From an uncultured virus (IMG/VR IMGVR_UViG_2806310702_000001) (Duplodnaviria > Heunggongvirae > Uroviricota > Caudoviricetes): a stretch of DNA of 64,000 nt. The DNA lies in the IMG/VR virus record IMGVR_UViG_2806310702_000001; one strand, 5' to 3'. The position numbers were made by a program, and so were the translations under genes. The notes beneath the pieces were generated by a model that was not told the DNA's origin, did no database searches, and worked only from the letters and a program-made list of their open reading frames with translations. Shown one piece after another: positions 6,605-47,202 of the stretch (position 1 is its first letter; each line of letters starts with the position of its first letter).

Positions 6605-6720
6605 ATAGCGATACTTTGTAGTAGAGGGTGAACTTTAAGTTAAACGATAAAACATAATTAAATTAAATTAAATAAACATATTATTTAAAAGGTTAGTTTT
6701 ATAGAGAGGAGACAGTATAA

Positions 6721-7008
6721 ATGACAAATATATTAGATTGTAAGTTAGAGGTTAAAGTGTTTAAATATGAGTCAGAAGATGAAATGCAAAACCATAGGCA
6801 AGAAATGAAAAAACAAGGATGGAAAATAAAAGATTCTAAAGCATGTCAATCGAAACTATTTGGTAAGTCTACAGTACAAGATTATAATGATGAAGCTAAT
6901 TGGGTTTATATAACAGAATATTATAGACAAAAACAAGTTGAAACAACACAAATAAGACAAAGCTATTATGAGACAAAAGTGTATTGGTTTAGCATGAATA
7001 CAAAATAA
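6721..7008 (+). CDS. hypothetical protein
   Basis: ORF with GAGAGGAG SD. Confidence 0.65.
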   Translation: MTNILDCKLEVKVFKYESEDEMQNHRQEMKKQGWKIKDSKACQSKLFGKSTVQDYNDEANWVYITEYYRQKQVETTQIRQSYYETKVYWFSMNTK

Positions 7009-7041
7009 GAAAGCAATTAAACGATAAAAAGAGGTTAAATA

Positions 7042-7357
7042 ATATATAAAATTCAAAATATAGAAGATATATATGAAAAAAGGAGATTGAAGAGTTTGTG
7101 TAATAACTAATATACCATCAGAGCCAAGATATTATACCGTACCAAGTCTAGAAGTAGGTTTATTACTAATTAATGTATTAACAGATGAAATGCTACTATG
7201 CAAATATTGTATAAGGAATGTACTTATGCTTAAAGAATATTTAGGGGGCACTACCGAAGGAAAAGTTTTAGGGTGGCGTGAGTAGTATGATAAAAATGGC
7301 AATACAATAGATGAATATGAATTAAAAAATGATTTCAAATTGGTAGTAAAAGGATAA
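7042..7357 (+). pseudogene. decayed hypothetical gene
   Basis: Coding-like frame after GAGG SD, broken by a frameshift/TGA near 7085 and an internal TAG near 7283. Confidence 0.35.
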
Positions 7358-7397
7358 AATAAAAGTAACAAACAATGGGAAATAAGGAGGAGTTCAA

Positions 7398-8028
7398 ATG
7401 GATATCAGCAATCTGTCGTACAAAGAGTTTTTATCGCTATCTGCAAAGGAGCAACAATCAATATTATCTGAATTAGAAAATTCAAACAATAAATATAACG
7501 AATTTAAGAACGCTAAAAATTTAGCAGAAATGAGAGAGATAAAAACAAATAGAATACAATATCTGAGGAATCTTATACAAGTGGTACTAGTTTCTTAGAC
7601 AACGAATTATCTGTTAAAGAAAATTATAATAAGATAAGAAGAGTGTATAGAGGATTATTTGTAAGCAACAATGGTATTAAGATTAATGCTGATGTAAATG
7701 GAGCATATCAAATAATGAGAAAAGTATTCTCGAATGTGAAAGCTGACGAGATAGAGGGGATAGGGTTATCTCCAATTAGAGTAAATATAGCTTAATACGA
7801 CTATGATATATTATTATTTTAATAATATTAATAATTATATAAGTTATATTGACTAATAAAAAATAATATTTATTAAAATTTATAATTAATTTTAATAAGA
7901 TTTATATTATTTATAACCTAGCTGGTAATATTATTGATGGTATTTGTACAGTTCTAAATAGTGATATATTAAAAAGTTATGTAGACAAATTGCATGATAT
8001 TGTTAAAATTATTAACAAATATAGATAA
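7398..8028 (+). pseudogene. hypothetical gene interrupted by a tnpB remnant (N part 7398-7564, putative C part 7918-8028)
   Basis: ORF with AAGGAGG SD runs into tnpB sequence; an orphan open frame LAGNIIDG...KYR* resumes after the IS end. Confidence 0.5.
7565..7917 (+). mobile_element. tnpB: IS200/IS605-type remnant: 3' end of tnpB (7565-7795) plus right-end region
   Basis: Translates EESYTSGTSFLDNE...RRVYRGLF...KINADVNGAYQIMRK...*, a TnpB C-terminus with RuvC III NAD; right boundary approximate. Confidence 0.85.
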
Positions 8029-8042
8029 GGAGGGGTTAACAT

Positions 8043-8216
8043 ATGACCAATGAAGATAAACTAATGGCACAAAATATTATTGAAACAGCAAAATTACTTA
8101 AATCACAAATTAGAGTATTATGTAAGCAACATAAATGTTGTGAAACATGTCCTTTTGAAAAAGTGTCGTGTAGTAATCATATATTATTATCAGAAGTAAA
8201 GTTAAATTTAAAATAG
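8043..8216 (+). CDS. small Cys-rich hypothetical protein (57 aa)
   Basis: [21 protein letters not shown] motif. Confidence 0.6.
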
Positions 8217-8229
8217 GGAGAGGATTTAT

Positions 8230-8625
8230 GTGAGTAATAAAAGAGAATTAGTTTATCCTGCAATATATAAACATTTTAAACATACAGAAGATGGAACGAT
8301 TAATAATTATATATATGTAACTATGGGAATTAGTAAACCATTAAAGAACTATGAAGAAGAATTAGATAAACTATTTAATATAACTCCAAGAAATATTTTA
8401 CTTGTACGATTAACAGAAAAAGATTCTATAATAGCACTATTTGAAAAAGATAGGCAATATTATCATGATATTAAAGATAGTACAGAAGATTTGGTCATAT
8501 ACAAATCACTTTATGATGACAGTGGGATATATGCTAGACCACTTGATATGTTCTTATCAGAAGTTGATAGAGAGAAATATCCTAATGTGGATCAGTAATA
8601 TAGATTTGAGTTAGTAGAATATTAA
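8230..8625 (+). pseudogene. DUF1653-family protein with premature TAA at 8596-8598
   Basis: [30 protein letters not shown]; conserved tail YRFE continues in frame after the stop. Confidence 0.75.
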
Positions 8626-8762
8626 AATTTAAGGAGATGAAACACAATGAATAACATTAAAGAACCGTCAGTAAGTGAACAATTTGATAATTAACAAAAT
8701 AAATTAAATTAAAAGTAATTAAAATTCATCTTTTATGGTGAATAAAAAAGAAGTGATGTTAT

Positions 8763-8845
8763 GAGAGAAATATAAAACACGGTCATGGTGGGTGCATGTC
8801 ACGATGGTGTATTACAGTACACCTACACGCCACCACTCCCTCTGA
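8763..8845 (-). ncRNA. candidate structured small RNA
   Basis: GC-rich nested stems directly downstream of TTGCAA-17-TATTAT promoter (8876-8848, - strand); no ORF. Confidence 0.55.
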
Positions 8846-8998
8846 ATATAATAACACTTATTGTAATATTTTGCAATAAGGTAAATAAATAGGGGGAAGG
8901 TTATGGGTAAGTTATCAGCAATTCTAAATATTTTAAAGATACTTAATGTTATATACAGCATATACACAATGATTAACAATAGATGGGAGGTAAAGCAT

Positions 8999-9184
8999 AT
9001 GAATAAGAAAGAAATACAGCAATGTTTTATAGTTTTAGGTATTGGTGTATTAGTATGCGGAATATGGCAAGGATTAGAATTAGCAATAGAAGGACAAATA
9101 ACACATAGGTCTGTAGATGATATTATAGGATTAACATTGGTAGCAAGTTTATATTTTAATTTTAAAAATTGGATTAATAAATAA
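8999..9184 (+). CDS. small two-TM membrane protein
   Basis: GGGAGG SD before ATG 8999; two hydrophobic segments; alternative in-frame start at 8903. Confidence 0.65.
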   Translation: MNKKEIQQCFIVLGIGVLVCGIWQGLELAIEGQITHRSVDDIIGLTLVASLYFNFKNWINK

Positions 9185-9219
9185 ATTAAAATTATATATT
9201 ATTAAAAGTAGGTGGTTTA

Positions 9220-9351
9220 ATGTGGTGTAAAAATAATAATTGCTGTCATTATGACAAAAAACACAATAAATGTACGAGAAAAGGAATGAAGGGAGATAAC
9301 AAAGATAAACAAGGTATTTGTTGGATGGAAAAATCAGAAGGAGAATATTAA
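9220..9351 (+). CDS. small Cys-rich protein (43 aa)
   Basis: AGGTGG SD; MWCKNNNCCHY...C...C. Confidence 0.55.
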   Translation: MWCKNNNCCHYDKKHNKCTRKGMKGDNKDKQGICWMEKSEGEY

Positions 9352-9363
9352 GGAGGAATAATT

Positions 9364-9897
9364 ATGTTAAAAATAGTTAAATGTCAATACTGCGGGAAAG
9401 AATTTATAGAAACAGAAGAAGACTATGGTGAATATATACGTGAGTGTGTATTACATGAGATTGAACACGTACATATTAAAAAATGCTTTGAGGAAAATTT
9501 AAAAAACGCATTGAGAATTTTGGATCGCAAATATAATACTGTATCTAACAATGAGAACTATAATATTGATGCAATATCGACAGGATATGATAACAATGAT
9601 ATTAATTATATTGCTTACAATTTTACATTGATTATCAATAAGGATATTTATAAAGACATAGAACTGTGGGGAGGACATAGAGAATTTAAGCATTGTCCTA
9701 CCATACAAGAAATTATTAATGAAATAGAAAAATACTATAAATCTAATATTAAAAAGACATATGAAGGCGTAGTGACATTTGAAGATTGGATGGGTGGAAA
9801 TGGTGCTAATGATTATGTTTTAGATGGACAATATACGAGAGACATTTTTAAAGAATTGCTTGGTAAGAAAATTAAAATTACTGTGGTAGATGATTAA
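9364..9897 (+). CDS. hypothetical protein with N-terminal C2H2-like zinc motif
   Basis: CQYC...HEIEH; SD. Confidence 0.7.
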   Translation: MLKIVKCQYCGKEFIETEEDYGEYIRECVLHEIEHVHIKKCFEENLKNALRILDRKYNTVSNNENYNIDAISTGYDNNDINYIAYNFTLIINKDIYKDIELWGGHREFKHCPTIQEIINEIEKYYKSNIKKTYEGVVTFEDWMGGNGANDYVLDGQYTRDIFKELLGKKIKITVVDD

Positions 9898-9912
9898 GGG
9901 AGGAATTAAAAA

Positions 9913-10212
9913 ATGAATAAACAAGAATTAAATAGGATAATGAATATAGATATTGATAATTTAGTTAAAACACAACATGATAGTTTAAAAAAATTCGTAT
10001 TAGATAAAATAGATGAAGTTAGGGAGCTGGTAGAAACGGAGCAATATGATTTATTGGAAGAAATCGCTTTCTTTAGTGGTCAAGGAGATGGCTATGGTAA
10101 TGCTAGTGAAAATTGGTGTATTAACTTTGCATATAAAGATAATGATGAAATGGATTTAATAGAAGTCACAGAATTGTTATCTAATTTAAAAAATAATATA
10201 AAAAGTAGATAG
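9913..10212 (+). CDS. hypothetical protein
   Basis: ORF with GGGAGG SD. Confidence 0.7.
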   Translation: MNKQELNRIMNIDIDNLVKTQHDSLKKFVLDKIDEVRELVETEQYDLLEEIAFFSGQGDGYGNASENWCINFAYKDNDEMDLIEVTELLSNLKNNIKSR

Positions 10213-10227
10213 AAAGGAGCAAAAACA

Positions 10228-10632
10228 ATGAAAATAGCTATTTTCCCAGAGTATGGAGGAATATATATACCATCATTCTTAGCAAAACAAATATTGAGTG
10301 ACTATTGGATTCATCAAAGAGTAGAGTTGGCAAATATTATAGAACAACTAGAGCCAACACACCATACAATTACACAAAAAGTATATGATGAATATGCTCA
10401 TAGTATTTGTAGCGAATTACAGTTTTATGATTATATTAAAGGGAATGATAAGCCTAATATTATTTATGTGAAAGATACAGAAAGTATACCTAGTTACGTA
10501 TATAAAATAGAAATAATAGACGTAGATACAAATAAAATATGGAAACTTGATACATATGATGGAGCTGAAGGTATTGAATACTATAACAAACCCAAAATAA
10601 GAGATAAAGAATTAAATTATGCTGAATGGTAG
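10228..10632 (+). CDS. hypothetical phage protein
   Basis: ORF with SD; YGG.. and W.L..YDGAEGIEY pattern. Confidence 0.7.
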   Translation: MKIAIFPEYGGIYIPSFLAKQILSDYWIHQRVELANIIEQLEPTHHTITQKVYDEYAHSICSELQFYDYIKGNDKPNIIYVKDTESIPSYVYKIEIIDVDTNKIWKLDTYDGAEGIEYYNKPKIRDKELNYAEW

Positions 10633-10681
10633 TGGTTTATAAAAGATATAATGAATTGATTTTATAAAATGGAGGTTAATA

Positions 10682-11083
10682 ATGAGAGAAATTAAATTTA
10701 GAGGTTATGCTTTAGAAGAATTAATTGATTCACAGTGGGTAAATGATGGTTTTGGAGTTTCAAAAGTAGAGTATTCGGATGGAACTTATTCAATATATTT
10801 AATTACATCACACGGAGAATATATAGTAGATGAAAAATCTGTAGGACAATACACAGGACTTAAAGACATAAATGGTAAAGAAATTTACGAGGGTGATATT
10901 GTTGAGGAGAGATATATAAATCCACTAACAAAAGATACTATAGTTAAGAAATTCTTAATAAAATATAGGAAAGATTGCTTTATTGCTGAATCAATTGGAC
11001 ATTCACCTTTTGGGGATACGTGGCTAAGTTTTATTAAAGAAGGTAAAGTCATAGGCAATATGTATCAAAATAAAATACGATAA
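10682..11083 (+). CDS. YopX family protein
   Basis: MREIKFRG, GQYTGLKDINGKEIYEGDIV, VIGNMYQN. Confidence 0.9.
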   Translation: MREIKFRGYALEELIDSQWVNDGFGVSKVEYSDGTYSIYLITSHGEYIVDEKSVGQYTGLKDINGKEIYEGDIVEERYINPLTKDTIVKKFLIKYRKDCFIAESIGHSPFGDTWLSFIKEGKVIGNMYQNKIR

Positions 11084-11139
11084 AACTCACATTTTAAAGT
11101 GTATACAATAATTAAAATAAATATGAATGGAGGTATTTT

Positions 11140-11361
11140 ATGTCCAATAATTTATGGGTACTTATAAGGAATATAGACTCCTTTCTCAATGCTTTACCTA
11201 AATTATGTAATTTATCATATAAAAAACATAACAAAATAAGATTACTACAATATCTATTGCCATCTATAATTTCAGTTCTCCGTAATAAATACCTATATCC
11301 AAGACACGCAAGAGAATGTGATTTTAGAGCTTATATTCAATATTTATTAAAGGAGATGTAA
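11140..11361 (+). CDS. hypothetical protein
   Basis: ORF with GGAGG SD. Confidence 0.55.
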   Translation: MSNNLWVLIRNIDSFLNALPKLCNLSYKKHNKIRLLQYLLPSIISVLRNKYLYPRHARECDFRAYIQYLLKEM

Positions 11362-11362
11362 T

Positions 11363-11527: not shown

Positions 11528-11539
11528 GAGGAATTAAAA

Positions 11540-12060: not shown

Positions 12061-12105
12061 CTCAATTAAACAAAAACTTAATAAATATATTAAAGGAGAT
12101 GTAAT

Positions 12106-12765: not shown

Positions 12766-12829
12766 CTTAGTATAAAATTGCAATTCTAAAAATGTAACAA
12801 AATTAAATTAAAAATATTTTAAAAAGTAG

Positions 12830-12858
12830 TTGACATTTTAAAATAAAAATGATAATAT
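12830..12858 (+). promoter_or_regulatory. sigma-A-type early promoter
   Basis: TTGACA-17-TAATAT with extended TG. Confidence 0.7.
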
Positions 12859-12944
12859 ATAAATGTACCAAAGATAACAAAGCAAAAATCACAAAGAGCA
12901 ACAAAAATAAATTAAACTAAACTAAAATAAAAGAGGGTGATGTT

Positions 12945-13244: not shown

Positions 13245-13267
13245 CAAATGAAAGGAAGTAGTGGATA

Positions 13268-13690: not shown

Positions 13691-13732
13691 TAAATAGAAT
13701 TAAATTAAATATGAATATAAAGAGGTGGTTAT

Positions 13733-21187: not shown

Positions 21188-21367
21188 ATGACTAATACAA
21201 ATATAGAATTACCAAAAGATATGACTACTGAAGAATATGAGATATTAATGGAGGTTTGCAAGGGTATTCCTTGTAAATCTTCTAAAGATAGAGAAGGCAA
21301 AAAGATTATACATAATAAAATTAATCAAGTATACATAGATAATATTATAAATGAATGTTGGGATTAA
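21188..21367 (+). CDS. hypothetical protein (59 aa)
   Basis: ORF after AAGGGGA SD. Confidence 0.55.
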   Translation: MTNTNIELPKDMTTEEYEILMEVCKGIPCKSSKDREGKKIIHNKINQVYIDNIINECWD

Positions 21368-21420
21368 TAATAAAATTAAATTAAAGTATTAATAAAATTA
21401 AAAAAGAAAGAAGGAGTTAT

Positions 21421-22329
21421 ATGAATTTTGATAAAAAAGATTTAGTTAAAAGCCCATTAAATTATACAGGAGGAAAGTTCAAATTATTGCCTCAAATATT
21501 ACCGTTATTTCCTGATAATATTGATACATTTGTAGATTTATTCTGTGGTGGCTGTAATGTAGGAGTAAATGTTAAAGCCAATAAAATTATTTGTAGTGAC
21601 ACAGAATCTCATGTTATTAATTTAATGAATTATTTTAAAACTATAGACAGTGATGAGTTAATTAAAAATATAGAAAATGTAATAAATACATATGAATTAA
21701 GCAATACAAGTGCGTATGGATATGAGTATTATGGATGTGATAGTAACAAAGGGGTAGGAAATTATAATAAAACTAAATATGAGAAATTAAGAGATAATTT
21801 TAATAACAATACAAAAGACAATCTTTTATTCTTTGTAACTGTATTATTTGCTTTTAGCAATCAAATAAGATTTAACTCTAAGGGTAAATTTAATATGCCT
21901 GTAAATAAAAGAGATTTTAATAATAACGGACGAAAGAATACCGTTAATTTTGTAGATAGATTAGATAAGTTAAACATAGAGTTTATCAATAAAGATTTTA
22001 GGGATTTTAGTATTAAAAATCTTAAATCAGAAGATTTAGTTTATTGCGATCCTCCATATTTAATTACTACTGCTTCATATAATGAACAAGATGGTTGGAA
22101 TGAAGAGAAAGAAAAAGAATTATTGAATTTATTAGATGAATTACATAATCAAAATATTAAATTTGCATTATCCAATGTGTTAGAATCTAAAGGTAAATCA
22201 AATGATATACTAAAAGAATGGTCTAAAAAATATAATGTATATTATTTAAATAATACATATAAAAATTGTAATTATCATAAGAAGGATAAAAGTAATAATA
22301 CAATTGAAGTATTAATTACTAATTATTAA
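21421..22329 (+). CDS. Dam/D12-class N6-adenine DNA methyltransferase
   Basis: NYTGGK, DLFCGG, YCDPPY, EVLITNY. Confidence 0.92.
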   Translation: MNFDKKDLVKSPLNYTGGKFKLLPQILPLFPDNIDTFVDLFCGGCNVGVNVKANKIICSDTESHVINLMNYFKTIDSDELIKNIENVINTYELSNTSAYGYEYYGCDSNKGVGNYNKTKYEKLRDNFNNNTKDNLLFFVTVLFAFSNQIRFNSKGKFNMPVNKRDFNNNGRKNTVNFVDRLDKLNIEFINKDFRDFSIKNLKSEDLVYCDPPYLITTASYNEQDGWNEEKEKELLNLLDELHNQNIKFALSNVLESKGKSNDILKEWSKKYNVYYLNNTYKNCNYHKKDKSNNTIEVLITNY

Positions 22330-22415
22330 TAATAAAATTAAATTAAAATGAATACATATAAAAGTAATTAAAATTGAGATTTTATGGTAAATAAAATTAG
22401 ATTAAAAATATAAAA

Positions 22416-23543
22416 ATGAATAGGAAAGGGACGATTGCTATAGACAACATAACAAACTTAAAAAATAAAATATTTAATGAGGATTGTTTTGAAACTTTAA
22501 AAAGAATACCCGACAAATCAATTAATTTAATAATTTATGACGCACCCTATTTTTCTACTAAAAAAGAAGAAGTAGGAGATAAAAAATGGAAAAATGAAGA
22601 TGAATATATTAACTGGTGTATTAAATTAATAAAAGAAACTCAAAGAGTGTTAAAAGACAATGGATCATTTTATTGGTTTCATAATGACATAAATATTATG
22701 GTTGAGATATTATATAGAACAAAACATGAAACTAACTTTAAATTAAAAAATCAAATAACATGGGATAAGTTAGCAACGGGAAATCAAGATTTTTTAATGC
22801 CATTATATAAAAATAGTAAACTAAAAAGGAGATACGGAACAAGTTTAGCAGAATATATTTATTATTTTACTTTTGATGATAGTACTGGATTAGTTAGAGT
22901 TTATGATAGCTCAGAAAATTTTAAAGATATAAAAAATTATCTAAAACAAGAGCGTAAAAAGGTTAAAGAGAAAAAATATTCAGATAAAGATTTAAGAGCT
23001 ATGTGTGGTTTAAGTCTTAAAGGAGGAGGTTTATTGAGTCATTATTGGGGTAATAAGCAATGGGTGTTCCCTATAGAAAAACATTATAAAAAATTACAAT
23101 CTACAGGGTGTTTTCAAAGGTCTTATGATATATTAAAAGAGGAATATAAAGCTTTAAAGATACAATATGAAGATACAAGACAAAAATATGAGCTAGAAAG
23201 ATATAAATTTAATCAACCTTATTTGACAACACCTAAAAACTTAGAGGAGTCAAGAAATACAATAAGACCATATTCATCTGTTTGGCATTATAAGCGAGAT
23301 AATAATATTTATGAAACCCATCTAACTCCAAAACCGCTAGAAATGATTAAGCACATTATTAATGTGTCATCGAATAAAGGAGATACAGTATTAGATTGCT
23401 TTATGGGTTCAGGGACAACGGCTATAGCTTGTTTAGAAACAGGTAGAAATTACATAGGTTGTGAGGTTGACCAAGATTATTATACGGTTATAGAAAAGAG
23501 GATTAATACATATTTAGAAGAAAAGGATAAGAATATTTTTTAA
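22416..23543 (+). CDS. beta-class N4/N6 DNA methyltransferase
   Basis: DAPY motif IV, HLTPKP, DCFMGSGTT. Confidence 0.9.
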   Translation: MNRKGTIAIDNITNLKNKIFNEDCFETLKRIPDKSINLIIYDAPYFSTKKEEVGDKKWKNEDEYINWCIKLIKETQRVLKDNGSFYWFHNDINIMVEILYRTKHETNFKLKNQITWDKLATGNQDFLMPLYKNSKLKRRYGTSLAEYIYYFTFDDSTGLVRVYDSSENFKDIKNYLKQERKKVKEKKYSDKDLRAMCGLSLKGGGLLSHYWGNKQWVFPIEKHYKKLQSTGCFQRSYDILKEEYKALKIQYEDTRQKYELERYKFNQPYLTTPKNLEESRNTIRPYSSVWHYKRDNNIYETHLTPKPLEMIKHIINVSSNKGDTVLDCFMGSGTTAIACLETGRNYIGCEVDQDYYTVIEKRINTYLEEKDKNIF

Positions 23544-23622
23544 AATATAGAACATCACTATATGATAATCTATGTTAATTGTGTATAATAAAACCAAAGA
23601 ACACATTAGGAGAGATTGTCAT

Positions 23623-24939
23623 ATGAATCATAGAATATTAAGTTGTAGCACATTTATAGAGAATTATTACATATGCTTAAATAAACAAATAGTAGGTTTT
23701 TCAACTCACACAGGAGAGACAGGAGATATAATTTTTTTATCTGTAAAAACTAAAAAATCTACTATGTGTGGGGCTAGAGCTATTATACAACAAGAAACAG
23801 ATATAAAGCCTTGGGAAAACGGAGAAAAATATGTTCAATGCTTTAAAATTAGTAATATAGAATATTGTACACCATTTGATTTAAGCATTTTAAAACGCTT
23901 TAGTGAAAAAGGATGGGGTTTAAAGTTCATATTAGGATCGAACAAAATAAAAGAACAAGAGGCTATTGATTTACTAAACTCAACGTTTGAGAAAAATAAG
24001 CGTGATTCTATGTATATATTCAAAGAAGATGAGTTAAAGAAACCTAGAAAAAAGAAAGAAAATAATATATGTGACGTCGTTAAAGAGGAAATATCATCTA
24101 CAGTACAGGCAAAAGATAAGGATAATAAAATATCAAATCAAACAAATATTACACAAACTGAACAAAACACTCAATTAGATATAATGGGAACTTTCCAAAC
24201 TATCAATTTCATTAGTGAACAACATGAAGTACAAGGATTAGAAACTTTAGTTACTAAACATTTTTATAACTTATTTACTAAATATAACGTTGATAATTCT
24301 ATTCTTATATCTGATAATAGGAAATTTAGTACAGCTACTATTAAAGATGATAATGGGACAAACATTAATGGAATAAGTGGTATTCCAGATGCATTATTAA
24401 TTACATATAAAAAAGACGACTCTGTGCCTTTGCAAATTAGTCTGATTGAGTATGAATGTTATGGACAGCAAAAGACTTCTATAAGACAAAAATCAGACTA
24501 TTTAAACTGTCACATTATACCTCAATTAATGAGATTTGCTTCAACGTTTAGTATAGTTACCGATTATAAAATTCGTGAGAATACTATAAAATCATGGGTA
24601 AGTAAGATTAGTAATTATATCTATAATGATAATGAATTGACTAAGAGAACTTCAAAATGGATAAAAGAATTATATCCTGATATAAACGAAATGCAAATCG
24701 CACTAAGGTTTAATGAAATACTTAAAGAAGCATTTGAAAATAGTATAAAAATTGTACTAATTATTGATGAATTAACAAATGAACAAAAAGATACCATAAA
24801 AAATATTATAGGAGCTTTTAAACTTAATAACAACTCTAAAAATAATAGTATTGAATTTGCTTCATATGTTGTTAGATTAGAACAAAAGGTTAACATAGTA
24901 GATGATAATGCTCAATATGCTTTATCTTATCAAGAATAG
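23623..24939 (+). CDS. putative EVE/PUA-like + PD-(D/E)XK nuclease
   Basis: N-domain ENYYIC..VG..GDIIF..PW; linker; C-domain IPDALLI...LIEYE; own -10 TATAAT near 23584 and terminator. Confidence 0.55.
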   Translation: MNHRILSCSTFIENYYICLNKQIVGFSTHTGETGDIIFLSVKTKKSTMCGARAIIQQETDIKPWENGEKYVQCFKISNIEYCTPFDLSILKRFSEKGWGLKFILGSNKIKEQEAIDLLNSTFEKNKRDSMYIFKEDELKKPRKKKENNICDVVKEEISSTVQAKDKDNKISNQTNITQTEQNTQLDIMGTFQTINFISEQHEVQGLETLVTKHFYNLFTKYNVDNSILISDNRKFSTATIKDDNGTNINGISGIPDALLITYKKDDSVPLQISLIEYECYGQQKTSIRQKSDYLNCHIIPQLMRFASTFSIVTDYKIRENTIKSWVSKISNYIYNDNELTKRTSKWIKELYPDINEMQIALRFNEILKEAFENSIKIVLIIDELTNEQKDTIKNIIGAFKLNNNSKNNSIEFASYVVRLEQKVNIVDDNAQYALSYQE

Positions 24940-24958
24940 GCTTAATGCTTATTCTTGA
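24932..24958 (+). terminator. hairpin terminator
   Basis: AAGAATAGGC-TTAAT-GCTTATTCTT. Confidence 0.6.
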
Positions 24959-25052
24959 TATTTAATACAAAATTAAATTAAATATACATATAAAAATAAA
25001 TAAAATTCAGAATTTATGGTAAATGGAAAATCAAAAGGAGGAAGTGGTATTT

Positions 25053-25853
25053 ATGAATAGTCCTATAAAATGGGTTGGTGGAAAAAGAAATATGAGAAAA
25101 GAGTTGGTAGCTATTATGCCCGAACATTTTCAATACGTTGAAGTGTTTGCAGGAGCATTATGGGTTATGCTTGAAAAAGAGCCTTGTAAACTCGAAATCA
25201 TAAATGATATTAATGATGATTTAATAAATTTTTACAAGGTTATTCAAGATGAAACTAGATATAAAGAGTTAATCAATAGGCTTTATTTTATGCCAAAATC
25301 AAGAGAACTATTTGATGAATGTGATACAAAGATAAAAAATAAAGAATACAAAGACGAAATTGACCATGCCTTAATGTTTTATTATTTGCTTAAACTTGTG
25401 TTCGGAGGCAGATTTGATAGAGTTAAAAAGTCTTTCTGTGTTCCAAATGATGGTAGAAAAAATATAAACTACGAAAAATTTCCAGAAGAATTTCTTGAAC
25501 TACATGAAAGATTTAAAGATGTATATATAGAAAAACAAGATTATAAATATATATTAGATAAATACGACAGAGAAGATGGATTATTTTTCTTAGACCCTCC
25601 TTATCTTGATACAACGGAACATAACTATGGAGTTAGTTTTGGATTAGAAGAATATAAAATATTAAAGGATAAGTTAAGTAAATTAAAAGGAAAATGGATT
25701 TTAACTTGTAATGATAAACCAGAATTGAGAAAATTATTTAAAGAGTTTAATATTAAAGATAACGAAGTTCATTATAGCGTTAGTGGGAAGTCTAATGCTT
25801 GTAAGAAATACAAAGAATTAATAATTACAAATTATAAAATTAACAATATATAA
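25053..25853 (+). CDS. Dam/D12-class N6-adenine DNA methyltransferase
   Basis: KWVGGK, EVFAG, INDIN, FLDPPY, ELIITNY; ATG 25053 after AGGAGG. Confidence 0.92.
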   Translation: MNSPIKWVGGKRNMRKELVAIMPEHFQYVEVFAGALWVMLEKEPCKLEIINDINDDLINFYKVIQDETRYKELINRLYFMPKSRELFDECDTKIKNKEYKDEIDHALMFYYLLKLVFGGRFDRVKKSFCVPNDGRKNINYEKFPEEFLELHERFKDVYIEKQDYKYILDKYDREDGLFFLDPPYLDTTEHNYGVSFGLEEYKILKDKLSKLKGKWILTCNDKPELRKLFKEFNIKDNEVHYSVSGKSNACKKYKELIITNYKINNI

Positions 25854-25902
25854 TATACATATTAATGATAAATTACATAAAATGTTAATTCTATGGTGAA
25901 AA

Positions 25903-26312: not shown

Positions 26313-26384
26313 TATTATAAATATAATTGTTAATGATAATATAAAAATCCAACAAAAATAAATTAAATTATTTTAAAAAAGTTA

Positions 26385-26413
26385 TTGACATTAGAAAAGT
26401 ATGGTGTTATTAT
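26385..26413 (+). promoter_or_regulatory. sigma-A-type early promoter
   Basis: TTGACA-17-TATTAT with extended TG. Confidence 0.75.
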
Positions 26414-26490
26414 ATATATGTACCAAGGAACAAGACAAGTTAATCTTAGTACATAACTAAATTAAATTAATATTAAAAGGAGGAATTAAT

Positions 26491-30998: not shown

Positions 30999-31063
30999 AT
31001 TGTAAGATAAAAATAAATTAAAGTATAATTATATATTATTAACAATTAAGGAGATGGGTATGT

Positions 31064-31323: not shown

Positions 31324-31400
31324 AACACCAAAACACAATAAAAGAATACTTTTATATAAAGTTAAATTAAGATAAATATAAAATTGAAAGGATTGATTAG

Positions 31401-37718: not shown

Positions 37719-37785
37719 CTTATTTATTAAATCCAAACATGATAAAATTCCTGTTTTATTATTAATTTAGTTATCTTTCTTATAA

Positions 37786-38210: not shown

Positions 38211-39164
38211 TTAAATAAGTTCATATTTATCTTTTTCATTAATCATTTTTTGAGTGTCTTCTTTAATATAGAACTTTTTAGTTACGTCCAAGCCTTCATG
38301 ATGAAGCAATGAAGATACTCTTTCTATTGGCATACCTGCGTTTTTTAATAGGGTAGCCCCTGAATGTCTCCAATCATGACAATGTAGAGTTGGCACACCT
38401 ATCATTTCACCGACTTTTTTAGTCCATTTACTTAAGGTTGATGTATTAACATTGGAGTATCCTTTATTATATTTTGATATAAATACATATTCACTCTCTA
38501 TATTATTTTCTTTTCTTATACTTTGTAATTGTAATAATAATTCTTTAACTTCTTTGTTAAAATATAAGTCAACGATTTTTCCTTCCTTTTCAAGAACATC
38601 ACCAATAATTCTATTTTCAAAATCAATTTGTTCCCATTTTATATTAGAAATTGCATTAACTCTTGCCATCGTAGATAAACTTAATAATACATACGTTTCG
38701 AGTTGTATGTCTCCATGATCTTTTAATTTTCTTTTTATTTGTTCGACTTGGTCTTTGGTTAAAAATGTTTGAGTTACAACATCAGTATCCTTTCTTGGTC
38801 TATCTATAAATTCCATGGGATTCTCTTTGATTATTCTTTTCTTTCTTAAAAATTTATAAAAAGCTGATATTGACGCCATTCTTCTTTTCATACGTCTACT
38901 ATTGTTACCTTGTTGTTTACAGAAGTATAGAAATTCCATAATATCATCTTCATTTAATTCAGTAATACATTGATTGAATTGTTTGTCTAATATATAAGTA
39001 AACCAATTATATAAATCCATTTCATAGTTATAAATAGTTTTTTCGCTTAATTCACGAATGGACATATCTATTTTATACTTATTTAAATATTTCATGGTAT
39101 CTTTGTTAAATTCCTTAATTTTTTCTTCATTATAAAAATTAATTTTTTTACTTCTTTCTGCCAT
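38211..39164 (-). CDS. tyrosine recombinase (XerC/D-like)
   Basis: MARV (R), EKEGK (K), HDWRH, LHH, C-terminal Y; SAM-like N-domain. Confidence 0.9.
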   Translation of the reverse strand: MAERSKKINFYNEEKIKEFNKDTMKYLNKYKIDMSIRELSEKTIYNYEMDLYNWFTYILDKQFNQCITELNEDDIMEFLYFCKQQGNNSRRMKRRMASISAFYKFLRKKRIIKENPMEFIDRPRKDTDVVTQTFLTKDQVEQIKRKLKDHGDIQLETYVLLSLSTMARVNAISNIKWEQIDFENRIIGDVLEKEGKIVDLYFNKEVKELLLQLQSIRKENNIESEYVFISKYNKGYSNVNTSTLSKWTKKVGEMIGVPTLHCHDWRHSGATLLKNAGMPIERVSSLLHHEGLDVTKKFYIKEDTQKMINEKDKYELI

Positions 39165-43634: not shown

Positions 43635-43946
43635 TTAATCGACTTTTAATAATAATACACCACTAGTAGATTTTGTTGCTATTAATTCACTTATACTATT
43701 TTTAGGATACGTAAATACCCCTTCTATAGTGTCTTGTGGTTCAACTTCTTGTTCTTCGTAAGATTTTACTTTCACACTAGTATCATTATCAAATAATACA
43801 GTTATTTCTGTTAGAATTGGATTTCCTTCTTTTAGTAAATTAGAATATTTATCACCTAAAGTTGATTCTATAGCTTTAAAAACATCCTTATTCATTAGTA
43901 TATTTTCATTTGATTTTACCTTAAATTTTTTAATTAAAGTTTGCAT
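43635..43946 (-). CDS. hypothetical protein
   Basis: GAGGTGA SD. Confidence 0.7.
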   Translation of the reverse strand: MQTLIKKFKVKSNENILMNKDVFKAIESTLGDKYSNLLKEGNPILTEITVLFDNDTSVKVKSYEEQEVEPQDTIEGVFTYPKNSISELIATKSTSGVLLLKVD

Positions 43947-44120: not shown

Positions 44121-44231
44121 TTAATTATTAATATATTCAATATAATTATCCCAACCTTCACGTTCCTCATCATCCATATCTAATTCTTCATTTACAAATT
44201 TGTCTAAATCTTGTCTGCCTATATATCCCAT
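44121..44231 (-). CDS. very acidic 36-aa peptide
   Basis: AAAGGAGG SD; MGYIGRQDLDKFVNEELDMDDEEREGWDNYIEYINN. Confidence 0.6.
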   Translation of the reverse strand: MGYIGRQDLDKFVNEELDMDDEEREGWDNYIEYINN

Positions 44232-44311
44232 TTTCATTCCTCCTTTTGTATTGTAATAAATTTTATTAAAATAAAAGATATATAAAAACTATGCTATATA
44301 TCTCAATATTT

Positions 44312-44797
44312 TTAATATGCTTTCATTATTTTTTTAACTATTCTATTTCTTATTTGGTCTTTATCATAAACGTGTAAAATTTTAAAATCTCGTTGTATAT
44401 CTTCATCATTTATTATTTCCTCAATATTAAAAAATCTCTTCAATTCTGGATTTAGACGATTTGTACTCTGCGTTATTTCTACATAATATTTATCAATATT
44501 TTTGTACAAATAATTCTCAAATTCAACAAAATTATTGTTCTTAAACATTGAATTATTGTTTTCATGTAATAGAAAATTTATATGATAAATAGTCATTTCA
44601 TATCGAGGAGATTGCTCTCTTTTCCAAAAATCACGTATACCATATATACATTCAAATTCCAATTTATAATCGTTAAATTTAATAGGATTTTTGTATATAG
44701 AATAGTGTACAACATTTGTTAATTTGCTCCGTAATAAACCACAAAGATTCTCATTCTTAAGTGTAAAATGACCTGTTTTTATAATGTTCATCTGCAT
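44312..44797 (-). CDS. hypothetical moron-like protein
   Basis: ORF with SD, isolated by long intergenic regions in late cluster. Confidence 0.65.
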   Translation of the reverse strand: MQMNIIKTGHFTLKNENLCGLLRSKLTNVVHYSIYKNPIKFNDYKLEFECIYGIRDFWKREQSPRYEMTIYHINFLLHENNNSMFKNNNFVEFENYLYKNIDKYYVEITQSTNRLNPELKRFFNIEEIINDEDIQRDFKILHVYDKDQIRNRIVKKIMKAY

Positions 44798-45017
44798 ATC
44801 CCTTCTTTTATAATCTATTGTAAATATAGTGTGTCATTTAATCATAAAAAATATGCAAATAATTATTGACAATCATATAAGTTTCTTTGATAATCTATTT
44901 TGTTATTATGATTTAGGCTTTTTCCACGGTGATATGAACCTTATATGCATTGATATAAACTTGTTTTATAATGACTTAAAGCTATATACAGTTTCCTTTA
45001 GATTAACATAGACCTTT

Positions 45018-46157
45018 TTAATTTTCATAATATAATTTATGAGCGGTTATATTCATACTACTATTAATATCCAATCCAAAACTTACTTTGTCTATTAAAT
45101 ATTCTCCCTTTATTCCTATTTCTTCATTATCTATTCTAATCTTTTGATTTACGTCAACTGTATAATTAGGTACTATTGAAAATTCAATAACTTCTAATGT
45201 GCTACTGTGTCTAAATAATTCATATTCGGCACGTAATTTAGCTTGGTTATCATCTAATATTTTATCATTCTTATATGTAAATTTTCTTCGACCTATTTTA
45301 TCAATACTAAAAATACTTTTTATATCATTGTTTTCTATATGATATTTAATTTGTTTACCATCTTTAAGCATGGCTCCCCATATCATAATATCGTTTTTTA
45401 CATTCTCCCAATTAGGTTCATTATTATATTCTAAATTCATATTCATTTCATTAAAATTATGCATGACAATATCATTTTTATGATCTTTGATTCTTTGATA
45501 ATGAAATCTGCCATCTTCATCATAATAATACTCATACCACATATATAAATCTCTGATTTCCGTCAATATATCTGTAATGCTATTATCTTCAGATTTTTCT
45601 ATATCATATGGTGTCAATAAATCGCACCCTTTACTATCTTTTAAATCGTCGATTAATATTTTATTCTCTCCACCTAATTGTTGAACAGTATTTTGCACAG
45701 CTTCAAACATAGGAGTTTTAGCCAATATTTTGGTTATATATTGAAGATTACCACTCAGTTGACCATTCAACCAACATATCTTATCAAGTGCTTGTAAACT
45801 TAATGTTTTATCTTTATCATTGTACTTTAAACTTGGTTTCAATAGTATGTATATGCCTTTATTAAACCAAACTATTTTATTAGTTATATTATTTCTAACA
45901 CCTATAAAAATTTTAATTTTTTTATTTATCCATATTGGAGAATTGACATTAGGTATAAATTTATTTTCATCTAACACCATTTCAATATTTAAACTTCTTC
46001 TAATTATTTGAGTAGCATCAATATTTATACTTCCATTTAAACATTTACCCTCAATCTCATCAATAACATCTTCTTTCCAATTCAATATCTGCAATTTAAG
46101 ATATTTTTGTTGAATTTGTTGTCTACATACTTGATATTGTTGTTGAGTATACATCAT
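45018..46157 (-). CDS. baseplate hub / tail protein
   Basis: GSINID..IRRS, YYYDEDGRF; late cluster. Confidence 0.7.
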   Translation of the reverse strand: MMYTQQQYQVCRQQIQQKYLKLQILNWKEDVIDEIEGKCLNGSINIDATQIIRRSLNIEMVLDENKFIPNVNSPIWINKKIKIFIGVRNNITNKIVWFNKGIYILLKPSLKYNDKDKTLSLQALDKICWLNGQLSGNLQYITKILAKTPMFEAVQNTVQQLGGENKILIDDLKDSKGCDLLTPYDIEKSEDNSITDILTEIRDLYMWYEYYYDEDGRFHYQRIKDHKNDIVMHNFNEMNMNLEYNNEPNWENVKNDIMIWGAMLKDGKQIKYHIENNDIKSIFSIDKIGRRKFTYKNDKILDDNQAKLRAEYELFRHSSTLEVIEFSIVPNYTVDVNQKIRIDNEEIGIKGEYLIDKVSFGLDINSSMNITAHKLYYEN

Positions 46158-47056
46158 AGATAATCCTCCATATCAATAAAGCCATATTTCTTTAATAAGT
46201 CAGAATTATAAACATCTCCAATTTCACATACATCTAAAGTAATTTCATACAGTTGTTGAGATAAATCATTATTAGGTATAAGTTTGATGGGTATTGTATT
46301 TTTAGCAAACATATAATTACCTGACGAGTCTTTAAAAATAAATGGTTGTCCACTATTAAAGAACCTTTCTATTTTTTGTCTTAATTTTTTTTCGGCTCTT
46401 CTATCTATTTGTTCATCGTAATTACATTCAACAGTTGTATCTGCTACCAATAATGCTTTGAGTGTTGTTTTTTTATAATTAATATTCCCATTTTCAACGA
46501 CAATAGGATACCTGCTTCCTAATGGTTCATACAAATTAATTTTTTTAACGGTTTCAAAATCTCCTAGTTGCATATTATATTTTAATTGATATTGTGTATC
46601 TTTACCTACTATCCAAACACCATCAAAATCACAATCTATTTGTTTACTTCGTTCTTTACCTAATACTCTATTTGTCATAGGTTGAATAGCGTACTCATAA
46701 GTTTCTAGTGCTTCAACTAATCTATCTTTGTAATTATATTCTCTTATCTTTGGATCAAATTTAAAAATTTTAACATCCATCCATTGCATATTCTCTATAT
46801 TACGTTTCTTAAGTTTTAACTTTTCTATTCTTATTCCACCATTGTCTAAATTACCTGCATCTAAATTATTATGAAATTTACCTAGTAATACGGTATTATA
46901 ACTCCATTCTTCTTTAGTGTTAATATAATTTAAAATTTCTTCGTCCATTTTGATTTCATCCATAATACAGTCTTTAATTATAATTTGATTTAAATTTCCT
47001 GTGACGGTGTTAACTCCAAAGAAATTATGTGTAAAAGGTTGTAAATTTACAAACAT
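46154..47056 (-). CDS. putative tail/baseplate protein
   Basis: Late cluster, overlaps next gene; LGSRYP motif. Confidence 0.65.
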   Translation of the reverse strand: MFVNLQPFTHNFFGVNTVTGNLNQIIIKDCIMDEIKMDEEILNYINTKEEWSYNTVLLGKFHNNLDAGNLDNGGIRIEKLKLKKRNIENMQWMDVKIFKFDPKIREYNYKDRLVEALETYEYAIQPMTNRVLGKERSKQIDCDFDGVWIVGKDTQYQLKYNMQLGDFETVKKINLYEPLGSRYPIVVENGNINYKKTTLKALLVADTTVECNYDEQIDRRAEKKLRQKIERFFNSGQPFIFKDSSGNYMFAKNTIPIKLIPNNDLSQQLYEITLDVCEIGDVYNSDLLKKYGFIDMEDYL

Positions 47057-47202
47057 TAACTCTACTCACCTACCTTTTTATTAAAATTGCAAAATGAGGA
47101 TAGATTTATAGCTTGATATGTCTACGTTATCTCGTCCTCATTTTGCGATAAAAGTCTTGTTTTATTTAATTGTCTTTTTATTTACTTCGTAATATTTTTC
47201 TA

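Follow-up and report, generated by a model that had tools for sequence, protein, structure and literature searches.

Short palindromes of the form ATAAAA-N6-TTTTAT recur at gene borders in the window, a 64,000-nucleotide stretch of a botulinum-type Clostridium plasmid-phage related to phage c-st, and they raise the question of whether a recombinase moves gene cassettes at these sites, as the earlier note had proposed. We compared the window with c-st, D-1873 p1, BKT2873 p1 and contigs from public runs, and used p2BKT015925, another group III host plasmid, as a control. All twelve palindromes that had been listed were found in place: three exact, six with one mismatch and three with two. In the list below, the linker is a second short element, and class B is a smaller set in which the palindrome lies between the linker and the ribosome site.

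6685..6702: TTAAAA-ggttag-TTTTAT, one mismatch; preceded at 13 nt by a linker copy and immediately 5' of the ribosome site of ORF 6721; the spacer recurs in BKT2873 p1 at 78333 with a different left flank
8719..8736: TTAAAA-ttcatc-TTTTAT, one mismatch, followed by GGTGAAT, class B; orthologue at c-st 57513 with both flanks conserved
10648..10665: ATAATG-aattga-TTTTAT, weak, two mismatches; 5' end of the yopX cassette
11080..11097: ATAAAA-ctcaca-TTTTAA, one mismatch; contains the yopX stop codon (ORF 10682-11083), as had been noted; also present at c-st 59366 and BKT2873 79247, the left flank and the right flank each differing among all three
12772..12789: ATAAAA-ttgcaa-TTCTAA, weak, two mismatches; 10 nt 5' of a linker and early promoter
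22368..22385: TTAAAA-ttgaga-TTTTAT, one mismatch; its right edge is where homology stops, both with c-st and with contigs from four runs
25000..25017: ATAAAA-ttcaga-ATTTAT, one mismatch, class B; perfect copy in BKT2873 at 85869, and a block end against BKT2873 7 nt upstream
25877..25894: ATAAAA-tgttaa-TTCTAT, one mismatch; matches c-st 67767 and BKT2873 88223, every flank differing
31338..31355: ATAAAA-gaatac-TTTTAT, exact; 21 nt after a G+C-containing hairpin; c-st homology stops one base past it
37742..37759: ATAAAA-ttcctg-TTTTAT, exact; placed where the plus and minus gene blocks meet; its left edge marks the start of homology to c-st and D-1873 p1
47148..47165: ATAAAA-gtcttg-TTTTAT, exact; intergenic in the late (minus-strand) block; the 18-mer is also in D-1873 p1 at 107577
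61943..61960: ATAAAA-gttacc-TTTTTA, weak, two mismatches; intergenic

Six more one-mismatch matches were found at 7856, 15350, 33129, 39132, 49332 and 56460, four of them mostly in coding DNA. Of the 15 matches with at most one mismatch, 11 were mostly intergenic.

Under one reading, the palindromes arise by chance where intergenic DNA is rich in A and T, or are intrinsic terminators of low strength. Both ATAAAA and TTTTAT occur often at 26% G+C, and shuffling of the whole window gave weak support for enrichment, with margins that were slight for both exact copies (3 against 0.47 expected; 5 of 100 shuffles reached 3) and copies with at most one mismatch (15 against 9.2; 6 of 100 reached 15). 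When the shuffles were restricted to intergenic DNA (7,397 nt, 23% G+C), however, the excess was clear, with 3 exact copies against 0.06 expected and 10 copies with at most one mismatch against 1.37, neither count being reached in 300 shuffles. The enrichment was confined to the six-base spacing. At N6 the window had 15 matches, compared with 3-13 at spacers 0-15, and c-st (1-97 kb) had 32 (9 exact) compared with 6-19 (0-3 exact); the same scan with everted or direct arms gave no N6 peak. The total of perfect 6-N6-6 inverted repeats in c-st was not raised at N6, and ATAAAA was the commonest arm among them, with 9 copies against 4 for the runner-up. Mirrored control motifs were rarer than the palindrome in three relatives (exact copies, 14 versus 2 in D-1873 p1 and 19 versus 5 in BKT2873 p1; with at most one mismatch, 45 versus 27 in c-st), and p2BKT015925 showed no excess (12 versus 18 for the control, 0 exact).

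Folding pointed the same way. The palindrome forms no stable hairpin: stem energies ranged from -0.1 to about -3 kcal/mol, RNA folds of 8 of 9 palindromes were not clearly better than shuffles, and arm changes between orthologous palindromes were uncompensated. A terminator scan of positions 6000-25999 returned one site, away from any palindrome. These results largely refute chance, which the earlier note had raised as a caveat, and weak termination alike, and we regard this reading as very improbable. The palindrome is specific in sequence and spacing and lacks a stable hairpin; we infer that it may bind a putative phage-encoded dimeric DNA-binding protein or, alternatively, may act as a phased A-tract/T-tract structural signal located where transcription units end.

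The palindromes are accompanied by an oriented linker, AAATTAAATTAAA, for which 31 matches with at most one mismatch were found in the window against 7.2 expected (none of 100 shuffles reached 31). All except two of these were on the plus strand within the plus-strand gene block, where 19 of 24 linker loci were intergenic. In c-st, 55 of 55 forward matches lay below 91 kb and 21 of 21 reverse matches above 93 kb; p2BKT015925 had no exact copy. The linker stands 8-48 nt upstream of many start codons and, in four promoters, about 17 nt 5' of the -35 box. The following copies and promoter cassettes bear on the argument.

6067..6126, plus strand: linker (6067-6079), then promoter-like TTGACA-18-TATAAT, 12 of 12 consensus positions
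6242..6358, plus strand: linker (6242-6254), promoter-like TTGACG-17-TATACT (6272-6300), leader, second linker (6346-6358), ribosome site; similar cassettes in c-st at 43717-43862 and elsewhere
12800..12921, plus strand: linker (12800-12812), promoter-like TTGACA-17-TAATAT (12830-12858), leader, second linker (12904-12921); homology to c-st begins at 12796 and to BKT2873 at 12903
13697..13709, plus strand: linker copy 23 nt 5' of a start codon, with a BKT2873 block end inside
24970..24982, plus strand: linker copy that separates the 455-aa ORF from palindrome 25000
26355..26471, plus strand: linker (26355-26367), promoter-like TTGACA-17-TATTAT (ending at 26413), leader, second linker (26459-26471); at 26351-26354 homology returns for c-st, D-1873 p1 and BKT2873 alike, corresponding to the right border of their toxin locus
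31010..31022, plus strand: linker copy, one mismatch, with a BKT2873 block end 6 nt downstream

Four promoter cassettes were counted in the window and, by eye, 14 in c-st (1-97 kb). A scan of 2.9 million viral contigs found five such loci in a 185,683-bp record and, among the matches listed, one other contig with two.

These punctuation elements occupy the gaps between early genes in a usual order: a stop codon, sometimes a G+C-containing hairpin, the palindrome and, 5-12 nt past it, the oriented linker (A/T)ACAAAATTAAATTAAA. Some gaps continue with an early promoter of the sigma-A type, whose leader of about 60 nt leads to a second linker, and a ribosome site closes the layout.

This arrangement could be purely regulatory, with no part in recombination: palindrome and linker would be operators of a phage repressor or activator, for instance the YopR/MrpR-like protein, or UP-like promoter or leader elements. 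The earlier note had itself allowed that the palindromes may be dimeric-regulator sites. The linker follows the direction of transcription in both genome arms and has the positions given above relative to start codons and -35 boxes. In SPbeta, seven upstream regions reported as MrpR-bound in PMC10516654 share an oriented AT-rich 15-mer. In c-st, the YopR-like protein CST030 has about 30% identity to large Bacillus phage homologues, and of its exact palindromes a single one is intragenic, within the 5' part of CST030. Distances from palindrome centre to -35 box, worked out by hand from sequence listings, clustered near 37, 48 and 58 nt for 7 of the 8 cases, steps of roughly a helical turn. Against this, about 76 linker matches in c-st are many for a repressor operator (PMC10516654 gives ten peaks for SPbeta), and the palindromes do not cover the core promoter, being about 75-95 nt 5' of the start sites. 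Certain families of the palindrome, such as 'tgttaa', are decaying without compensation, which argues against strong selection on them.

Comparison with the relatives revealed gene content that differs between short elements.

6659..8713, plus strand: 2,041-bp segment with five small ORFs and, on either side, a 14-nt direct repeat, TAAATTAAATTAAA (6659 and 8700); a single copy and no insert in c-st and D-1873 p1
10632..11079, plus strand: yopX cassette; missing from c-st, D-1873 p1 and one contig of run X3 (joint 10631->11080), with 17 other letters in place
21363..22347, plus strand: 962-bp unit with a Dam-type methylase and, on either side, a 23-nt direct repeat, ATTAATAATAAAATTAAATTAAA (21363 and 22325); a single copy and no insert in c-st
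22386..25873, plus strand: variable slot with an N6/N4 methylase, a 455-aa ORF and a Dam-type methylase; 1,180 other letters in contigs from four runs, and CST080 alone between matching palindromes in c-st

The palindromes that delimit this slot are 'ttgaga/ttcaga' and 'tgttaa'. Its content differs between the window, c-st, BKT2873 and the set of four runs, giving four versions, and the run contigs join 22385 to 25874, both palindrome edges. Relatives switched to unrelated sequence exactly at the palindromes at 11080, 22385, 25874, 31356 and 37743. Among the 5 palindrome cores that are identical in c-st, 4 had a flank switch beside them, whereas intergenic 16-mers used as controls had one in 96 of 1,254 cases (Fisher p = 0.0002); the same test against BKT2873 was not significant (2 of 3 versus 29%, p = 0.21). 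The 'ctcaca' and 'tgttaa' palindromes are identity islands amid three different left and three different right flanks.

The ends of homology blocks clustered at the linker. Seven of 36 unique ends were no more than 6 bp from a linker, a zone that covers 1.6% of positions (p about 1e-6), as were 7 of 24 intergenic or edge ends versus 8.4% (p = 0.003), with the caveat that alignments tend to extend through shared short elements, so that apparent ends may fall at the far edge. In this coarse test, intergenic ends at palindromes were not significant (2 of 24, p = 0.29). When c-st was compared with D-1873 p1 and BKT2873 p1, 1 of 24 ends lay within 6 bp of a linker and none within 6 bp of a palindrome (one at 7 bp). 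In the window itself, most ends (27 of 36) fell away from both elements, at ribosome sites, at start or stop codons or inside genes. Selection that retains recombinants with whole gene-plus-signal units would account for such ends at ribosome sites and codon borders. Selection alone, however, predicts ends across the whole spacer, not within a few bases of the elements, and the two indels with linker repeats at both ends and one copy in the relative bear the signature of exchange within repeats. We consider a purely regulatory role rather unlikely.

The remaining reading is that the palindromes are core sites of an integron-like or pdif-like system, at which an XerC/D-like or other phage recombinase cuts, rejoins and moves cassettes. 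A candidate gene is real and intact.

38211..39164, minus strand: XerC/D-like tyrosine recombinase, orthologue of CST104 of c-st, with candidate catalytic residues visible by eye

The 6-N6-6 architecture with its strict spacer length, the switches exactly at palindrome edges, the slot with four contents and the 18-bp islands between unrelated DNA all favour such a system, and general recombination would be poorly served by a match of six bases alone. The sites are nevertheless unlike tyrosine-recombinase cores. Conservation ends with the 6-bp arms, whereas the arms of Xer, Cre and FLP are about 11-13 bp, and exact copies carry 16 distinct spacers, whereas tyrosine recombinases require matching spacers between partner sites. 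Switches map to the outer edges of palindromes or to the linker, none to the spacer. The comparison suggested in the earlier note was thus positive in part. The two cleanest indels join within linker direct repeats, not palindromes; one insertion relative to BKT2873 has a linker as its left joint and a palindrome as its right; and many cassettes lack a palindrome on one side. Nothing ties the recombinase to the sites, and a single Xer-like gene at the early/late junction of a plasmid-prophage would usually be read as serving dimer resolution. What stands of the original proposal is that the palindromes are non-random and lie at gene borders and swap points; a dedicated recombinase as their driver is doubtful, and less probable than regulation alone.

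We favour, at roughly an even chance, modular gene shuffling at shared punctuation joints through short shared sequence, in the manner of the PeSLs of T4-like phages, rather than proven recombinase cassettes. The positions of the joints are observed directly; the pathway would probably be recombination through short shared sequence instead of a dedicated site-specific recombinase. PeSL cassettes, whose properties and deletion model are described in PMC2839356 (sections 13 and 16), are the closest analogue of the palindrome/linker punctuation, with the difference that the stem-loop part in the window does not make a stable terminator. Arms of six bases offer very little sequence for homologous exchange, and the exact coincidence of switches with palindrome edges is thus poorly explained by homology alone.

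In this reading the palindrome belongs to a set of three short punctuation elements that are peculiar to Clostridium plasmid-phages of the c-st family. Because these modules recur at many borders between genes, they would act as joints for the loss, gain and replacement of cassettes. The neurotoxin cluster of c-st and BKT2873 p1, which starts right of the palindrome matching 25877, occupies one such slot, and in the window this slot holds DNA methylases and a small ORF.

The window has a G+C content of about 26%, and its genes run in plus direction up to about 37.2 kb and in minus direction from there on. Pfam matches in the plus block are to genes of replication and nucleotide metabolism: a DnaE-type polymerase, a RecD-like helicase, yopX, NrdG, an intein-bearing NrdD, dUTPase, three DNA methylases, uracil permease, thymidine kinase, two topoisomerase II subunits and 5'-nucleotidase. 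The minus block contains an XerC/D-like recombinase, a lysin, a tape-measure protein of 2,445 aa and an IS607-like element with a RAGATH-18 RNA, the latter being the sole Rfam match at gathering thresholds (47439-47499, 60 bits; gathering score 44.9). A tRNA search of the window found none. The window has blocks in common with Clostridium phage c-st (NC_007581; 185,683 bp) at 85-100% identity, and was compared as well with the related plasmid-prophages D-1873 p1 and BKT2873 p1 of group III C. botulinum strains and with contigs of four public sequencing runs. Phages of the c-st family carry the botulinum neurotoxin genes of types C and D, and their genomes are mosaic.

Further segments of the window
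47439-49318, minus strand: IS607-like unit of a MerR-domain serine recombinase, a TnpB-like protein and the RAGATH-18 RNA
16552-17543: NrdD intein (Pfam Intein_splicing), missing in BKT2873 p1 and in a contig of run X2 (joint 16552 to 17543)
18816-21154: replaces the 156-aa dUTPase gene of c-st, precisely from ribosome site to stop codon, by a 50-aa ORF, a 446-aa ORF (sigma-70 region 4 and LAGLIDADG) and a longer dUTPase of 263 aa
11786-12059: 274 bp with 98% identity to three places in c-st (4077, 16514 and 159837), all at IS605-type transposase genes annotated ISCbt1; probably an IS remnant

Palindromes of the form ATAAAA-N6-TTTTAT had been proposed in the earlier note as sites of a cassette system, with the caveat that in such AT-rich DNA some hits could be due to chance. 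All 12 were found at their positions, three exact, six with one mismatch and three with two. Whole-window shuffles gave marginal support: 3 exact palindromes against 0.47 expected (at least 3 in 5 of 100 shuffles), and 15 with up to one mismatch against 9.2 (at least 15 in 6 of 100). When intergenic stretches were shuffled one by one, however, 10 palindromes stood against 1.37 expected and 3 exact ones against 0.06, and neither count was matched in any of 300 shuffles. The spacing was equally specific. A spacer of six gave 15 matches in the window and 32 (9 exact) in c-st 1-97 kb, versus 3-13 and 6-19 (0-3 exact), respectively, for other lengths, and everted or direct orders of the two words showed no peak at N6. 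ATAAAA was the arm most often seen in perfect 6-N6-6 inverted repeats of c-st; the overall total of N6 repeats was not elevated. Counted against the mirrored pattern, c-st has 45 palindromes versus 27 with up to one mismatch (13 exact), and exact copies number 14 versus 2 in D-1873 p1 and 19 versus 5 in BKT2873 p1. As the specificity control we used p2BKT015925, another plasmid from a group III strain, standing in for the host chromosome; it showed no excess (12 versus 18, zero exact). Therefore, the palindrome is an element specific in sequence and spacing and restricted to the c-st phage family, rather than a mere by-product of AT-rich DNA.

We then examined the physical nature of the palindrome. 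Its spacers are variable and slightly G+C-enriched; the 42 spacer families, 16 of them with exact arms, all differ in their spacers, and a position matrix built on these 16 contained zero information beyond the 6-bp arms (flank maximum 0.57 bits). The stems, made of A and T only, fold as RNA with -0.1 to about -3 kcal/mol, and 8 of 9 folded sites did not clearly beat shuffled sequence, the exception (8705-8750) pairing differently. Arm changes across orthologous sites are uncompensated, as in the palindrome with spacer 'tgttaa', whose right arm reads TTCTAT, TATTAT and TTTTAA in three genomes. An RNA hairpin was rejected as too weak on the grounds of folding and uncompensated arm changes, and an intrinsic terminator for lack of a G+C-rich stem with a U run; the one terminator-like site found in a scan of 6000-25999 lies away from the palindromes. 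Taken together, the weak folds, the uncompensated arms and the bare 6-bp arms with unlike spacers argue against a hairpin or terminator and against sites of the Xer, Cre or FLP type. CodY, LexA, Spo0A and dif-like matches were also rejected after comparison with consensus sequences. The size of the palindrome would fit a dimeric DNA-binding protein, with two tracts about one helical turn apart, and the palindrome may bind a phage protein or shape the DNA where a transcription unit ends.

The palindrome of c-st and BKT2873 p1 often lies directly past the preceding stop codon and 5-12 nt upstream of a second, oriented word, AAATTAAATTAAA, hereafter the linker, and a G+C-containing hairpin is sometimes found between stop codon and palindrome. 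Several palindromes are preceded by a longer repeat of about 60 nt, in which a hairpin, CCTTGATATAYAAGG, is followed by about 16-21 nt ending in AAAACACR and then by the palindrome.

Copies of the repeat of about 60 nt
window 31300-31355
c-st near 43650
c-st near 36580
BKT2873 p1 near 79210
BKT2873 p1 near 104750
BKT2873 p1 near 63030

At a smaller group of sites, called class B, the order is linker, palindrome and then TTTTATGGTRAA. Since TTTTATGGTRAA was found only at four window sites and one c-st orthologue, class B is probably one paralogous intergenic repeat. Inspection by eye for sigma-A, sigma-H, sigma-E/K or leaderless promoters revealed no consistent -35/-10 arrangement. A conserved ATGGTRAA starts a mini-ORF, 5-14 codons long and lacking a preceding ribosome site, which could be a leader peptide or chance; in two cases its stop meets or overlaps the beginning of the following gene.

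Class B sites and their mini-ORFs
window 8719: mini-ORF 8733-8762
window 22368: mini-ORF 22382-22411
window 25000: mini-ORF 25016-25060
window 25877: mini-ORF 25891-25908
c-st 57513: orthologous site

Two G+C-rich stretches accompany these sites. Between palindrome 8719 and the following ribosome site, 243 bp with a G+C-rich core (8749-8991) are replaced by 7 other letters in c-st, D-1873 p1 and contigs from all four runs, and a permissive Rfam scan of 8700-9000 returned nothing credible (best E = 0.37, IS605-orfB RNA model). The second stretch, 25895-26010, directly past palindrome 25877, has no c-st counterpart at that place, and Rfam gave nothing for it at E up to 1 in a scan of 25850-26360.

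The linker, which was discovered by reading the palindrome flanks and often has ACA or TAA directly ahead, gave a stronger signal than the palindrome. With up to one mismatch it occurs 31 times in the window against 7.2 expected, a number reached in none of 100 shuffles. Twenty-nine copies are on the plus strand inside the plus-strand gene block and two on the minus strand inside the minus block. Of the 24 plus-strand loci, 19 lie between genes, as a rule 8-48 nt ahead of a start codon. In c-st, all 55 copies below 91 kb are forward and all 21 above 93 kb are reverse. The orientation of the linker therefore matches that of transcription in both arms. No exact copy is present in the control plasmid p2BKT015925. 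Four near-consensus sigma-A-type promoters are predicted in the window with a linker about 17 nt upstream, and a second linker copy lies about 100 nt further on, directly ahead of the ribosome site.

Predicted promoters downstream of a linker (near-consensus sigma-A matches)
6097-6126
6272-6300
12830-12858
about 26385-26413

Three of these four linker-plus-promoter units were among the top consensus matches within 6000-25999, and 14 such units were counted by eye from a listing of c-st 1-97 kb. When 2.9 million viral contigs were scanned for linker-N14-20-TTGACA, the c-st record (185,683 bp) had five loci and, among the matches listed, just one other contig had two. In a genome collection, the matches listed for linker and TTGACA were scattered single ones, uninformative on host chromosomes. 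The linker may work in transcription or in the leader, possibly as an UP-like element or a leader signal.

Whether gene gain and loss borders coincide with these elements was determined by aligning window positions 1-40 kb with c-st, D-1873 p1 and BKT2873 p1 (blastn) and merging collinear block ends; the events in c-st and D-1873 p1 are not mutually independent. Seven of 36 unique ends lay within 6 bp of a linker, compared with 1.6% of positions (p about 1e-6), and the excess persisted for intergenic or gene-edge ends alone (7 of 24 versus 8.4% expected, p = 0.003). For the palindrome this coarse test gave 2 of 36 ends (31356 and 37743), which was not significant for intergenic ends (p = 0.29); alignments run on through shared short elements and may shift apparent ends to the far edge. 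Five 16-nt palindrome cores are common exactly and uniquely with c-st, and unrelated sequence directly adjoins four of them, as against 96 of 1,254 control intergenic 16-mers (Fisher p = 0.0002). The same comparison with BKT2873, 2 of 3 cores versus 29%, was not significant. Between c-st and D-1873 p1 (8 ends) or BKT2873 p1 (16 ends), one end fell within 6 bp of a linker and none within 6 bp of a palindrome, one being at 7 bp.

Contigs from the four runs supply independent cases. All four join 22385, where palindrome 22368 ends, to 25874, three bases short of palindrome 25877, with 1,180 other letters between, and run X3 has a joint from 10631 to 11080, by which yopX is lost as far as the left edge of palindrome 11080. 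Run joints with about 21 letters on one side (e.g. 8728 to 25896, 12823 to 26007) join paralogous repeats and were left out. The palindromes with spacers 'ctcaca' and 'tgttaa' are islands of identity: across the window, c-st and BKT2873, each has three unlike left and three unlike right flanks. Flank switches coincide with the outer arm edges; since the arms are identical at all sites, an exchange within a palindrome is not locatable. The cleanest indel events involve the linker, not the palindrome.

Indels flanked by linker repeats
window 6659-8713: insert of 2,041 bp with five small ORFs and 14-nt direct repeats at 6659 and 8700; c-st and D-1873 p1 have a single repeat copy and no insert
window 21363-22347: unit of 962 bp with a Dam-type methylase and 23-nt direct repeats at 21363 and 22325; c-st has one copy

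The segment with the second Dam-type gene, compared with BKT2873, has its left joint at a linker and its right joint at the 'tgttaa' palindrome. The majority of block ends lie elsewhere, at ribosome sites, at start or stop codons or within genes, including an intein border. Thus, of the expectation that breakpoints among relatives fall at the palindromes, the part that stood is the set of switches at palindrome edges, whereas the two cleanest indels fall in the linker and most block ends at neither element. A significant share of mosaic joints is located at linker or palindrome elements.

The direct-repeat indels bear on the view that palindromes and linker are purely regulatory signals with no role in recombination, which leaves them unexplained. 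A good precedent for it is phage SPbeta, whose YopR/MrpR repressor, a protein of tyrosine-recombinase fold, is described by Kohm et al. (2023, PMC10516654) as binding about ten early promoters through a repeated element of 15 bp. In our own comparison, seven of these SPbeta upstream regions (yonP, yonT, yonX, yopK/aimR, yopM, yopV and yorE) have AAAAAATATGTATAT in common, with 14-15 of 15 positions matching in each; it is presumably the SPBRE of the MrpR paper. Both systems have short AT-rich repeats upstream of early operons in a large SPbeta-related temperate phage, and the c-st family likewise encodes a YopR-like protein of tyrosine-recombinase fold, from a gene outside the window. The c-st gene for it, CST030, contains the sole in-gene exact palindrome of c-st 1-97 kb, at 26140-26157, about 117 nt into the gene. 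In sequence, however, AAAAAATATGTATAT as we derived it is unlike the c-st-family motif, and dozens of copies here contrast with the ten bound sites of SPbeta. Overall, we consider a purely regulatory role unlikely.

The flank switches also bear on the proposal of the earlier note, in which a tyrosine recombinase shuffles accessory genes at the palindromes by an integron-like or pdif-like mechanism. Their coincidence with palindrome edges is better explained by a dedicated site-specific system than by 6-bp homology. The stand-alone recombinase reported at 38211-39164 is indeed encoded in the window as an Xer-like ORF, which appears intact: its translation, read by eye, contains ARV...HDWRH...LLHH...KKFY, and it aligns with structures of the Xer type. 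The inverted arms and their 6-base spacer, with enrichment at N6 alone, likewise agree with the architecture described. Core sites of tyrosine recombinases (dif/pdif with XerC/D, loxP with Cre) have arms of about 11-13 bp in a site of 28-34 bp, and integron attC sites span 57-141 bp with paired R and L boxes, beside an intI gene and attI. The c-st-family palindrome resembles core sites in its inverted arms, its 6-base spacer and an Xer-like recombinase gene in the same genome, but its arms are short (6 bp in a site of 18 bp) and its spacers are unlike between sites. Joints at the outer edge recall attC, but there is no integron integrase, attI or array, and clean indels join in another element. 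The recombinase gene is 12-31 kb off most of the 18-bp sites, which form no common-promoter array. With no conserved 11-13-bp arms, no common spacer and no attC/attI array, the designation as integron-like or pdif-like core sites was not upheld. Joint types are moreover mixed, and indels are flanked by the linker. A dedicated site-specific cassette system thus appears quite improbable. Slightly less probable still, in our estimate, is its specific form in which ATAAAA-N6-TTTTAT would be the minimal site of an integron-like exchange that tolerates unlike spacers and cuts at the outer edge, driven by an Xer-like or YopR-like protein of tyrosine-recombinase fold, and would have placed accessory loci including the c-st neurotoxin cluster. 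Separately, a perfect 13-6-13 inverted repeat occupies 39803-39834, directly downstream of the stop codon that ends ORF 39847-40179, with the recombinase operon further downstream. It has the look of a terminator, and its dimensions are also those of a recombinase core site.

Four unlike contents were seen between the 'ttgaga/ttcaga' and 'tgttaa' palindromes.

Content of the slot between the 'ttgaga/ttcaga' and 'tgttaa' palindromes
window: 3.5 kb, three genes
c-st: one small gene
BKT2873: two genes
four runs: 1,180 letters

In c-st, 67,935-79,540 is occupied by botR, the HA genes, NTNH and the neurotoxin gene of type C1. BKT2873 p1 likewise has botR, HA, NTNH and neurotoxin genes at this place. 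The window showed no toxin genes; its corresponding segment, 21,402-26,353 (c-st 67,365-79,782), holds three DNA methylases, a 455-aa ORF and a 72-aa ORF, the 455-aa ORF being also present in BKT2873 p1. In both c-st and BKT2873 the neurotoxin locus begins directly right of the 'tgttaa' palindrome and stops ahead of the linker-plus-promoter unit equivalent to window 26355; the c-st cluster is bounded by palindrome 67767 and the linker-plus-promoter unit 79783.

The linker and the palindrome are both restricted to this phage family, and their order with respect to stop codon, promoter-like site and ribosome site is fixed. The reading we prefer, at about even chances, is that they constitute punctuation for modular gene shuffling similar to the PeSL of T4-like phages. 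PeSL (promoter-early stem-loop) cassettes combine a stem-loop with an early promoter of the sigma-70 type and its AT-rich upstream part (Arbiol et al. 2010, PMC2839356; Comeau et al. 2014, PMC4122927); this work reports indels with two flanking copies versus one in a relative, as well as mini-circles, and puts forward an exchange model for T4-like phages (PMC2839356). Both systems have repeated composite intergenic modules in which a sigma-70-type early promoter (predicted here) with AT-rich sequence upstream is accompanied by a palindromic element, both cluster ahead of small accessory genes in a variable early region, and in both, close relatives differ by indels with two flanking copies in one phage and one in the other. 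In contrast to T4-like phages, the c-st family comprises temperate plasmid-prophages of a Gram-positive anaerobe. Its AT-only 6-N6-6 palindrome is too weak to terminate, whereas PeSL stem-loops are stable and often G/C-rich, and its clearest joints are borne by a separate, oriented linker of 13-16 nt that is often promoter-less. In the PeSL-like reading, because the modules recur at many gene borders, exchange between non-allelic copies would delete, insert or replace whole genes along with their signals. The Susskind and Botstein model for mosaic lambdoid phages reportedly likewise holds that short conserved sequences at gene borders (linker or boundary sequences) are preferred crossover points; unlike there, the elements here are explicit, abundant and statistically linked to some joints.

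A term search of text from two group III plasmidome papers (PMC3098183, PMC4177856) returned no mention of either element, and a literature search tied neither string to c-st-family phages, though the original c-st genome paper may already describe them. Explicit short elements are now pinpointed at the borders of variable slots in c-st-family phages. If the PeSL-like reading is true, the elements would be useful as annotation markers for cassette borders and early promoters in this family, and punctuation-based shuffling would reach from the lytic T4-like phages of Gram-negative bacteria to a temperate plasmid-phage of a Gram-positive host.
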